DNA from: an uncultured Gammaproteobacteria bacterium
GTDB taxonomy: Bacteria > Patescibacteriota > Patescibacteriia > UBA1558 > GWA2-36-10
Direction of reading: 5' to 3'
NCBI GenBank assembly: GCA_964455165.1
Contig: CAYVXP010000001.1
Location: 1-30,477, forward strand
DNA: 30,477 bases
The first letter of the stretch is position 1, and the number at the start of each line of letters is the position of its first letter. This document shows positions 431 through 3,735 of the stretch, one piece after another. Under the pieces are notes generated by a model that saw nothing but the letters and a program-made list of their open reading frames with translations, did no database searches and had not been told where the DNA came from. The position numbers and the translations under genes were made by a program.

Positions 431-1747
431 TTATTTAGTTTTTTTAGATTTAGCGGGTTTCTTTTCTTTTTTGACCTTTGTCTCCTCCCCGCCAGAGGCG
501 GGTCCGCCTTTGGCGGATACTTCATCCGTTTCTTCAACACTCTCTTCTTGTGTCTCCTCTACTTCTTCGGCTTTGTCAGCTGTGCTTAGAGGAGCGTGGT
601 TACTGGGGTTTTTATCAGGGTTACTAGGAGATATGATATCAATTTTCCAGCCAGTCAACTTGGCAGCTAGACGAGCATTTTGCCCACCGCGACCAATAGC
701 TAGTGATAGTTGATCATCATTGACCATGACTTTGGCGGTTTTACTTTCTTCGTCTACTTCTATTTTGCCGATGCTAGCTGGACTCAAAGAGTTGGCAATA
801 AAAGTTTTTGGATCACTATTCCAATGAATGATATCTATTTTTTCACCACCGAGCTCACTGATGACGGTTTGTACTCTGGCACCCCTTTGACCAACACATG
901 AGCCAATTGGGTCGATATTTTCGTCAGCGGTAAAGACAGCTATTTTGGTACGAGCACCAGCTTCACGAGCAATGGATTTTATCTCTACTGTACCAGCAGC
1001 AATTTCTGGTACTTCGGTAGCGAATAATTCTTTGACAATTTCTGGATGAGTGCGGGATAGGATGATTTCTGGTCCTTTGCTACCCATGCGGACAGCGGAG
1101 ATATAAAAGTTTAAGCGAGTACCAATATTGTAGCCTTCACTACGAATTTGTTCTTCGGGGGCCAAGACTCCAGTAGCTTGACCAAGGTCTACGATAAAGC
1201 GACGACCTTCTCGTCTTTGGATAGTACCTATAGTCAATTGACCTTCTTTATCTTTATATTCACTGAAGATATGATCTCTTTCAGCTTCACGTAGACGTTG
1301 GATGATGACTTGTTTGGCAGTCTGAGCAGCCATGCGACCATACTCTTCTGGTACTGGTAGTTTGGTTTCTATGACATCACCAATCTTGTAGTCACTGTTG
1401 ATAGTTTGAGCTTCAGCAATCATGATTTCAGCGCGAGGATTAAATTTCTTAATCATCTCTTCTTCACTGATTTCTTCGCCAGCTTCTTTGCGGGCATGCA
1501 TTTCTTCTAGTTGCTTTTCTTGTTCTTCTAGGTCAACATTTTCGACGACAGTTTTTACGTCAAAAACTGCTGTTTGGCCATTGTCAGCATTGAAGACTAC
1601 TTTGATGTTTTGATTAGGGGTACCATACTCCTTGCGGTAGGCAGCAGCTAGAGCCGCCTCGATGGCACCAATGACTGCCTCAGTGGACAGGTTTTTTTCT
1701 TGGCAAACCTGCTTGATAGCAGCGAGCATTGTGTTATTACTCGACAT
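431..1747 (-). CDS. nusA: Transcription termination/antitermination factor NusA with an acidic/Lys-rich C-terminal tail
   Basis: Motifs YGRMAAQTAKQVIIQRLREAER, AREAGARTKIAV, IDPIGSCVGQRGARV, QLSLAIGRGGQNARLAAKLTGWKIDI. Confidence 0.98.
   Translation of the reverse strand: MSSNNTMLAAIKQVCQEKNLSTEAVIGAIEAALAAAYRKEYGTPNQNIKVVFNADNGQTAVFDVKTVVENVDLEEQEKQLEEMHARKEAGEEISEEEMIKKFNPRAEIMIAEAQTINSDYKIGDVIETKLPVPEEYGRMAAQTAKQVIIQRLREAERDHIFSEYKDKEGQLTIGTIQRREGRRFIVDLGQATGVLAPEEQIRSEGYNIGTRLNFYISAVRMGSKGPEIILSRTHPEIVKELFATEVPEIAAGTVEIKSIAREAGARTKIAVFTADENIDPIGSCVGQRGARVQTVISELGGEKIDIIHWNSDPKTFIANSLSPASIGKIEVDEESKTAKVMVNDDQLSLAIGRGGQNARLAAKLTGWKIDIISPSNPDKNPSNHAPLSTADKAEEVEETQEESVEETDEVSAKGGPASGGEETKVKKEKKPAKSKKTK
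488..517. repeat. 30-bp double-hairpin element (CCCGCC-AGA-GGCGGG + TCCGCC-TTT-GGCGGA) in frame within nusA
   Basis: Two adjacent perfect 6-bp-stem palindromes; they encode SAKGGPASGG (NusA codons 411-420). Confidence 0.85.
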
Positions 1748-3363: not shown

Positions 3364-3392
3364 TTGACTTTTGTCAAAGATCAAGTTATAAT
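3364..3392 (+). promoter_or_regulatory. sigma70-type promoter for the tRNA-Glu locus
   Basis: TTGACT(3364-3369)-17 nt-TATAAT(3387-3392). Confidence 0.75.
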
Positions 3393-3449
3393 CTGCCTTG
3401 TATTTTATATATTTGGCCCTATCGTCTAATGGTTAGGACACCAGGTTTT

Positions 3450-3480
3450 TCCCGCGTAGCGGGACCCCGCTCTGCGGTGG
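3450..3480. repeat. 31-bp double-hairpin element (TCCCGC-GTA-GCGGGA + CCCCGC-TCT-GCGGTGG) in the anticodon of the outer tRNA copy
   Basis: First palindrome perfect, second with one extra T; same 15+15 layout as the nusA element. Confidence 0.8.
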
Positions 3481-3544
3481 CATCCTCATGGCCAATAAGT
3501 TGTTTGAAAATTAATAATAATTCATCTCGGCTTGGTGACCTGAC

Positions 3545-3619
3545 GGCCCTATCGTCTAATGGTTAGGACACCAGGTTTTCATCCTGGCAATCGGGGTTCG
3601 ATTCCCCGTGGGGTCACCA
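3545..3619 (+). tRNA. tRNA-Glu (anticodon TTC), intact, CCA encoded
   Basis: Acceptor GGCCCTA/TGGGGTC, anticodon arm CCAGG-TTTTCAT-CCTGG, T arm CGGGG-TTCGATT-CCCCG, 3' ACCA; 75 nt. Confidence 0.97.
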
Positions 3620-3679
3620 AGCCGGCAAGAATTAATAACAGTTTGGCAATCGGGGTTCGATTCCCCGTGGGGTCACCAG

Positions 3680-3710
3680 AAAAAAATCAACCAAAATAGG
3701 TTGTTTTTTT
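3680..3710 (+). terminator. Intrinsic terminator after the tRNA locus
   Basis: CAACC-AAAATA-GGTTG followed by T7. Confidence 0.65.
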
Positions 3711-3735
3711 GTTTTAGGCTAGTCAAGCTTTTTCT

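Follow-up and report, generated by a model that had tools for sequence, protein, structure and literature searches.

The insert at positions 3450-3480 of the window (the whole stretch of 30,477 nt that was analysed) is probably a small mobile DNA double hairpin left as a scar at the left junction of a selfish cassette, consisting of a nuclease and a replacement tRNA, that no longer has its nuclease gene. The insert belongs to a dispersed family of double hairpins that enter T|CA sites and move as DNA, it adjoins an intact copy of the tRNA that it interrupts, and its family is associated with small GIY-YIG open reading frames (ORFs).

Results

A nested tRNA-Glu(UUC) locus

The window belongs to a Patescibacteria metagenome-assembled genome (MAG) of 789 kb in 131 contigs with 37.6% G+C, named G000 here; all genomes compared are likewise MAGs. 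The features of the locus, all on the plus strand, are the following.

3364..3392 (+): sigma-70-type promoter, TTGACT-17-TATAAT, 11/12 matches, driving the whole nested unit
3415..3449 (+): outer, disused tRNA-Glu(UUC) piece, positions 1-35, 100% identical to 3545-3579 (repeat finder)
3450..3480 (+): double-hairpin insert, 31 nt, GC-rich, inserted at T35|C36; hairpin 1, 3450-3464; hairpin 2, 3465-3480
3481..3486 (+): outer tRNA piece, positions 36-41 (CATCCT)
3487..3544 (+): gene-less spacer and 5' leader of the inner tRNA, 58 nt, with the left clamp arm at 3528-3539
3545..3619 (+): intact, presumably functional tRNA-Glu(UUC) (ARAGORN; Rfam RF00005, 62.6 bits)
3620..3643 (+): trailer, 24 nt; the right clamp arm, 3613-3624, overlaps the tRNA 3' end
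3644..3678 (+): outer tRNA piece, positions 41-76 including CCA, 100% identical to 3585-3619
3688..3711 (+): intrinsic terminator at the end of the unit; G001 and G003 have the same one after the locus

Joining of 3415-3449, 3481-3486 and 3645-3678 gave the inner tRNA letter for letter. The first-pass annotation had described a double hairpin sitting exactly at 35/36, with the 5' half ending at T35, G as the last base of the insert and the tRNA resuming at C36 (CATCCT, 3481-3486), and this description was confirmed for the tRNA-Glu(UUC) sequence both from the letters and by the repeat finder. The boundaries are fixed and allow no sliding, since T35 is followed by the T of the insert and the insert-final G by C36.

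The insert has a G+C content of 77%, compared with 38% for the window, in which it occurs once. Folding with DNA parameters predicted two adjacent hairpins (-10.5 kcal/mol, z -2.9), and folding with RNA parameters predicted one longer hairpin (-16.7, z -2.2). In the Rfam search, at both the gathering and the E<=1 thresholds, the inner tRNA was the sole scorer, and no RNA family was assigned to the insert. No RF00028 match was obtained at either threshold for the 31-nt insert, described earlier as far too short for a ribozyme; the introns of relatives measure 224-247 nt.

The intact tRNA-Glu(UUC) lies 64 nt downstream of the insert end. The interrupted outer tRNA-Glu is therefore a dead shell and not a working gene, and neither splicing nor repair is required. 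The leader segment 3528-3539 pairs with 3613-3624 (inverted repeat I1), forming a clamp between the leader and the tRNA 3' end with the start of the trailer. Such leader/trailer clamps were found in G000 only at two nested loci; a repeat family made up of clamp arms was ruled out, as the arm sequences are unique. The locus contains no nuclease ORF. The only matches of the spacer 3487-3544 in blastn-short searches were orthologous Glu loci, and its derivation from a nuclease ORF was rejected because it has no similarity to ORF-bearing cassettes.

The Glu locus in relatives

The Glu locus of G003 is a plain uninterrupted gene with the same promoter, and that of G005 consists of the gene, the trailer and the 3' piece; in these uninterrupted loci the distance from the promoter to tRNA position 1 is equal to that in the window. 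The Glu shells of G001, G002, G004 and G006 are riddled with several different hairpins. The locus of G042, a member of a different genus, reads as positions 1-35 with inserts, hairpin, CATCC, spacer and intact tRNA, and in G045, from a third genus, the whole nested design was found again with covarying clamp arms. A survey for inserts at 35/36 thus recovered the same insert at this position of tRNA-Glu in other genera, and the doubt that it could be an assembly chimera was dispelled by homologous inserts at 35/36 of the tRNA-Glu(UUC) shells in the independent MAGs G001, G002, G042 and G045. The tRNA match of these four shells ends five bases past the hairpin (CATCC); here it extends one base more.

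Hairpin 1 has decayed in G001 and G002, where the locus is retained. Together with the states of the Glu locus among the relatives, this indicates that the insert is old or recurrent and is not needed for a functional tRNA. When selection on the outer pieces was looked for, the identity of outer and inner sequences in G000 was compatible with a local divergence of ~5%, and the shells of G042 and G045 had diverged.

A dispersed family of double hairpins

A BLAST search of the locus against 40 relatives returned many short matches confined to the insert. The family was searched with a pattern for the two stems, with the reversed pattern as a control. Copies were found in 23/39 genomes of the bacterial family, including four in G000, in 29/86 genomes of the order and in 8/401 genomes of the phylum sample; the reversed pattern gave 0. 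Distinct copies numbered 42 in the sample of the bacterial family and 49 overall. The recurrence of the two-hairpin design (52 times in 29 of the 86 order genomes, with no match of the reversed pattern) argues that the insert is not a chance structure.

The copies are 31-37 nt long and are made of two adjacent GC-rich hairpins with 3-nt loops. The loops are hypervariable, with 24 and 22 different cores in the two hairpins, and the stem sequences recur, a conservation that is partly by construction because the search pattern fixes the stems. Cores of 5 nt contribute one more closing pair, so that 3 nt remain in the loop, in 25/28 and 21/22 cases. Full-text literature searches retrieved no account of either hairpin inserts or nested tRNA genes from Patescibacteria, and the paper on rRNA insertions in CPR bacteria leaves tRNA unmentioned.

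Another double-hairpin family, 30 nt long and distinguished by its second stem, was observed at 488-517 of the window, in frame in the tail of a nusA-like ORF (431-1747, minus strand), with more copies at G000 C23:7247 and C29:4668.

Target site and mobility

The element is mostly preceded by TT (34/42 and 32/42) and followed by CA (32/42 and 26/42), which places the insertion site at T|CA. Removal of the element restores a contiguous tRNA sequence, indicating that insertion is precise and produces no target duplication. The hosts of 32/42 distinct copies are tRNA-derived, with insertions in T-loops at 55/56 (n=15), D-loops (n=12) and anticodon loops (n=5); the anticodon-loop copies comprise two in tRNA-Glu at 35/36 (G000 and G042) and three antisense in tRNA-Ser. 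The D-loop, T-loop, antisense Ser and ORF copies indicate that the site is set by T|CA on either strand and not by the anticodon, and the suggestion of an anticodon-targeting insertion was not borne out. The first-pass annotation was right that the insertion is precise and site-specific.

At least five copies lie in frame in ORFs; those of 33 nt in long ORFs encode the 11-aa peptide ATAERGPAKGG. An empty site was identified in G000 (C74), where the orthologue of a G046 protein (L078) has an exact 11-aa gap at the hairpin position, and G046 itself carries three identical copies in three different genes. These observations and the antisense copies establish that the element moves as DNA.

Among the 32 tRNA-derived hosts, every one whose contig extends far enough is accompanied by an intact tRNA of the matching type, in most cases at no more than ~400 nt. 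Dead 5' pieces lie upstream of the intact tRNA and dead 3' pieces downstream of it, and mostly just 0-10 nt separate the hairpin from the inner edge of its dead piece; 12/15 T-loop cases keep just 3-9 nt of tRNA upstream of the hairpin. This proximity to the inner edge is unlike random later insertion, and the junction pattern points to the hairpin being the end of an inserted block, or to breakage beside the hairpin.

Association with small GIY-YIG nuclease ORFs

A search with PF01541 detected 1-10 small GIY-YIG ORFs per genome (50-76 bits) in 36/39 genomes of the bacterial family. A small GIY-YIG ORF was present within 600 nt of 12/43 hairpin copies and within 30 nt (19-28 nt) of 5/43, compared with ~0.3 (about 0.65%) expected. 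The hairpin-adjacent ORFs encode single-domain GIY-YIG proteins of 82-84 aa; UPF0213 proteins are the best relatives with a solved structure (E 8e-9), and no equivalog was found in NCBIfam. Full units are ordered as tRNA 5' piece, hairpin in either orientation, 82-84-aa GIY-YIG ORF and intact tRNA, and the nuclease ORF lies between the displaced tRNA piece and the regenerated tRNA at L063, L064, L065, L053, L080, L221 and L222. In G053, an ORF-bearing and a gene-less unit stand in tandem and start in the same way after the hairpin, which suggests that gene-less units derive from ORF-bearing ones that lost the ORF. G000 has two small GIY-YIG genes, on C64 and C79, where aragorn found no tRNA; neither shares a contig with any of the four hairpin copies.

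At L221 (tRNA-Glu(CUC) of G011), the GIY-YIG ORF extends into the intact tRNA, whose D-arm supplies the TAG at which it ends, and the old 5' piece has a different, long hairpin in its D-loop.

Comparison with known systems

Group I introns were found in tRNA anticodon loops of three relatives (L094, L095 and L096 in G023, G046 and G002, respectively; 81-89 bits, 224-247 nt); in G002, small GIY-YIG ORFs lie just upstream of the intron on the same contig. The insert resembles the group I introns of bacterial tRNAs in its anticodon-loop position, with U before it and G at its end (T35 and G3480). It differs from them in that it has 31 nt instead of more than 200, lacks the catalytic core (P3-P9, usually >200 nt), need not be removed and occurs also outside tRNAs. 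The rule of U before and G at the end, mentioned in the first-pass annotation, thus holds here, and such introns do exist in anticodon loops of relatives, but the rule is uninformative for the insert because the same flank and end are the consensus of the hairpin family and are true also of ORF copies.

Palindromic elements of Rickettsia, reportedly described by Ogata and colleagues in 2000, are said to be selfish sequences of ~100-150 bp that lie in frame in protein genes and add a peptide. The present family is similar in being palindromic DNA tolerated in frame in protein genes, as seen from the 33-nt ORF copies and the gap in the orthologue. The Rickettsia elements are larger (about 100-150 nt against 31-37 nt) and are not known to be tied to tRNA fragments or GIY-YIG genes.

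The REP/BIME/REPIN elements, with their RAYT (Y1) enzymes, are likewise numerous small GC-rich hairpins, probably handled as single-stranded DNA (ssDNA), in which structure is kept over loop sequence. The double hairpins differ in having no RAYT beside them, in that their two hairpins are direct and not inverted, and in their location, which is not extragenic (32/42 in tRNA-derived DNA, at least five in frame in ORFs). Matches to PF01797 (Y1) were obtained in 10/39 genomes and showed no correlation with the hairpin. Mobilisation of the RAYT/IS200 type was rejected, as Y1 genes are rare and uncorrelated and the one in G000 is flanked by another palindrome. This RAYT-like Y1 ORF (C60:3717-4061, L092; 31 bits), the only one in the genome, is both flanked and internally marked by a 13-nt palindrome.

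Free-standing GIY-YIG homing endonucleases can carry a partial copy of their target, as do SegB in the tRNA cluster of phage T4 and the mobile ORFs of Allomyces mitochondria. The likeness lies in a nuclease gene that has lodged in or next to another gene, in the duplicated target piece that stays behind and in the regeneration of a working gene. The present units are far smaller, have a conserved double hairpin at the junction and are often gene-less scars; at the 3450-3480 locus, the 58-nt spacer has neither an ORF nor homology to an ORF-bearing unit.

The Ssn proteins are single-domain GIY-YIG single-strand nucleases of ~90 aa encoded beside dispersed 20-50-nt NTS/SRM hairpin repeats, and the hairpin directs the cutting (PMC11893778). 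A gene for a GIY-YIG-only nuclease adjoins hairpin repeats in the relatives as well, but not at the 3450-3480 locus. Identity with SRM repeats was rejected, because the published motif (PMC11893778) was present in 0/49 copies with 15-nt flanks on both strands. The ORFs differ further from Ssn in having UPF0213 proteins as their nearest solved relatives, and tRNA splitting is not reported for Ssn.

Fungal and sponge mitochondria contain double-hairpin elements and repetitive hairpin-forming elements, and yeast mitochondria contain GC clusters (reviewed in PMC2800124). They are short GC-rich units of one or two hairpins dispersed in an AT-rich reduced genome, occupy spacers and rRNA genes and sometimes protein genes, are kept in transcripts and have no known transposase. 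The present family similarly has two adjacent GC-rich hairpins dispersed in AT-rich DNA and within genes, a resemblance of form only; the mitochondrial elements are organellar, and the review reports for them neither a defined T|CA target nor a preference for tRNA loops nor an associated nuclease gene (PMC2800124). The closest known systems are therefore the mitochondrial double-hairpin elements/GC clusters and the Rickettsia palindromic elements in form, and the Ssn pairs and homing endonucleases in logic.

Other tRNA loci and the tRNA complement

A second nested locus of G000, for tRNA-Asp (C15:5350-5620, L040), consists of outer positions 1-12, a D-loop hairpin, a perfect 18-bp clamp and an 8-nt outer 3' end. 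The clamp pairing of the Asp locus of G009 (L057) is kept through two compensatory changes, and an outer Asp copy with its own clamp in this genome implies that cassettes are nested like Russian dolls. The dead copies at L075 (Gly, G005) and L057 (Asp, G009) have the 15-nt T-arm replaced by a hairpin of equal length that resembles hairpin 1. Another hairpin family (stem CCTGCCTGCC...) follows GGTTA in the D-loop of dead tRNA pieces at L072, L048 and the Glu loci of G001 and G006; the position occupied in the tRNA seems to differ from one hairpin family to another. A conserved motif with a GC hairpin follows the CCA of tRNAs at G000 C15:9056, C16:9318, C18:11063 and C37:2309 and, on C31, lies past the outer Leu piece; in nested loci it comes after the outer, ancestral 3' piece and not after the inner tRNA.

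Only 26 tRNAs were called in G000; Gly, Pro, Phe, Tyr, His and Cys are unrepresented. That the missing tRNAs are hidden interrupted genes was rejected, as a whole-assembly T-arm scan combined with RF00005 yielded one extra tRNA-like gene (C56) and a 3' fragment (C37); most missing tRNAs are therefore probably assembly gaps. The extra gene (C56:404-509, minus strand), 106 nt long and missed by ARAGORN, scored 40.5 bits with RF00005 and features a promoter of its own, a lengthened anticodon arm and an extra arm of 9 bp. Contig C102 begins within the 3' end of a tRNA, after which comes a 3' piece carrying the hairpin; assembly is probably interrupted at tRNA loci.

Discussion

Origin of the insert

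Under the cassette origin, which we consider probable, a selfish unit of hairpin, nuclease and spare tRNA or tRNA part would have entered the tRNA-Glu gene, splitting the old tRNA-Glu(UUC), and the new copy inside would have taken over its function. The hairpin would have arrived with this cassette rather than alone, the nuclease gene would have been lost later, and the hairpin would have stayed at the old junction. It would now be transcribed only within a ~130-nt 5' leader that RNase P discards, with no decoding role. The nuclease presumably acts on the hairpin or its flank. GIY-YIG enzymes cut and do not join, and we know of none that pastes DNA, which counts against a cassette. More tentatively, the double hairpin may be the cognate ssDNA recognition or cut-site module of the 82-84-aa GIY-YIG nucleases; the two could then form undescribed selfish cassettes of Patescibacteria, with or without a spare tRNA, that invade tRNA loops at T|CA, regenerate a working tRNA and shed solo hairpins into protein genes, with 3450-3480 as a junction scar.

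Alternative explanations

Since copies inside protein genes indicate that the hairpin can move alone, the copy at 3450-3480 may be a later, independent insertion, in which a free-moving non-autonomous hairpin entered an already redundant tRNA-Glu piece with no history of a nuclease cassette; the target T|CA occurs in many tRNA loops, and insertions would persist only where the copy is dead. The lone copies within protein genes, for one of which a clean empty site was identified, are consistent with this, as are the lack of an ORF at the locus, a spacer that matches no cassette and the several unrelated hairpin families gathered by dead shells. However, the hairpin is found 0-10 nt from the inner edge far more often than random later insertion would place it, GIY-YIG ORFs are strongly enriched beside it, and the Glu shells of G001, G002, G042 and G045 share their end five bases past it (one more here), so that a solitary arrival appears unlikely. 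A more improbable proposal is that the hairpin is kept by selection as an RNA insulator that prevents wrong pairing between the decoy 5' half and the inner tRNA, and the clamp likewise. The decoy has exactly the sequence of the inner 5' half and is co-transcribed with it, the clamps of G000 are restricted to the two nested loci, and the compensatory changes preserve the Asp clamp between genera; against a selected role, decay of hairpin 1 in G001 and G002 did not entail loss of the locus, and the element is also found in ORFs and in contexts where no decoy is transcribed.

Removal at the RNA level would make the outer tRNA a gene in pieces, from which the hairpin and the 157-nt inner-tRNA block are excised and the exons joined, as in archaeal multi-intron or split tRNAs. 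The perfect tRNA spelled by the three outer pieces, the predicted fold of the whole transcript, which pairs the outer 5' and 3' acceptor strands, and the outer 3' pieces of G045, which carry the lineage-specific T-stem of its own inner tRNA, would suit such processing. An intact copy was nevertheless present at every such locus examined, the outer copies of G001, G002, G004, G005 and G042 have been truncated or have decayed, G003 has none, and the same element lies antisense and inside ORFs; we also know of no bacterial machinery for splicing such inserts, and this explanation is given very little weight. Least credible is a self-splicing group I intron at 35/36 that has shrunk to 31 nt, the collapsed relic considered in the first-pass annotation. 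The U before the insert and the G at its end, and the introns in anticodon loops of G002, G023 and G046, speak for it; yet the insert ends have no evident similarity to the 224-247-nt introns of these relatives when compared by eye, no Rfam intron match was obtained at the locus, and the element also resides in D-loops, T-loops, ORFs and antisense positions, where an intron history is implausible. Repair after anticodon-nuclease cleavage, the other origin considered there, did not hold up either: anticodon nucleases cut RNA, and such damage would leave no insert in the DNA.

Implications

The apparent 31-nt 'mini-intron' of a bacterial tRNA is thus removed, and in its place stands a tiny T|CA-targeted mobile hairpin that is statistically tied to miniature GIY-YIG genes. 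For annotation, a GC-rich twin hairpin in a tRNA-like stretch of these genomes signals that the copy is dead and that the live gene is to be found nearby. If the link to the nuclease genes is functional, the hairpin/nuclease pairs could be of use as ssDNA tools, like the Ssn family, and the link would help to explain the fragment-littered tRNA loci and the under-counting of tRNAs by finders and assemblers in such MAGs. Essential tRNA genes of these gene-poor, ultra-small bacteria would then be broken and replaced time and again by a compact selfish system that they carry.
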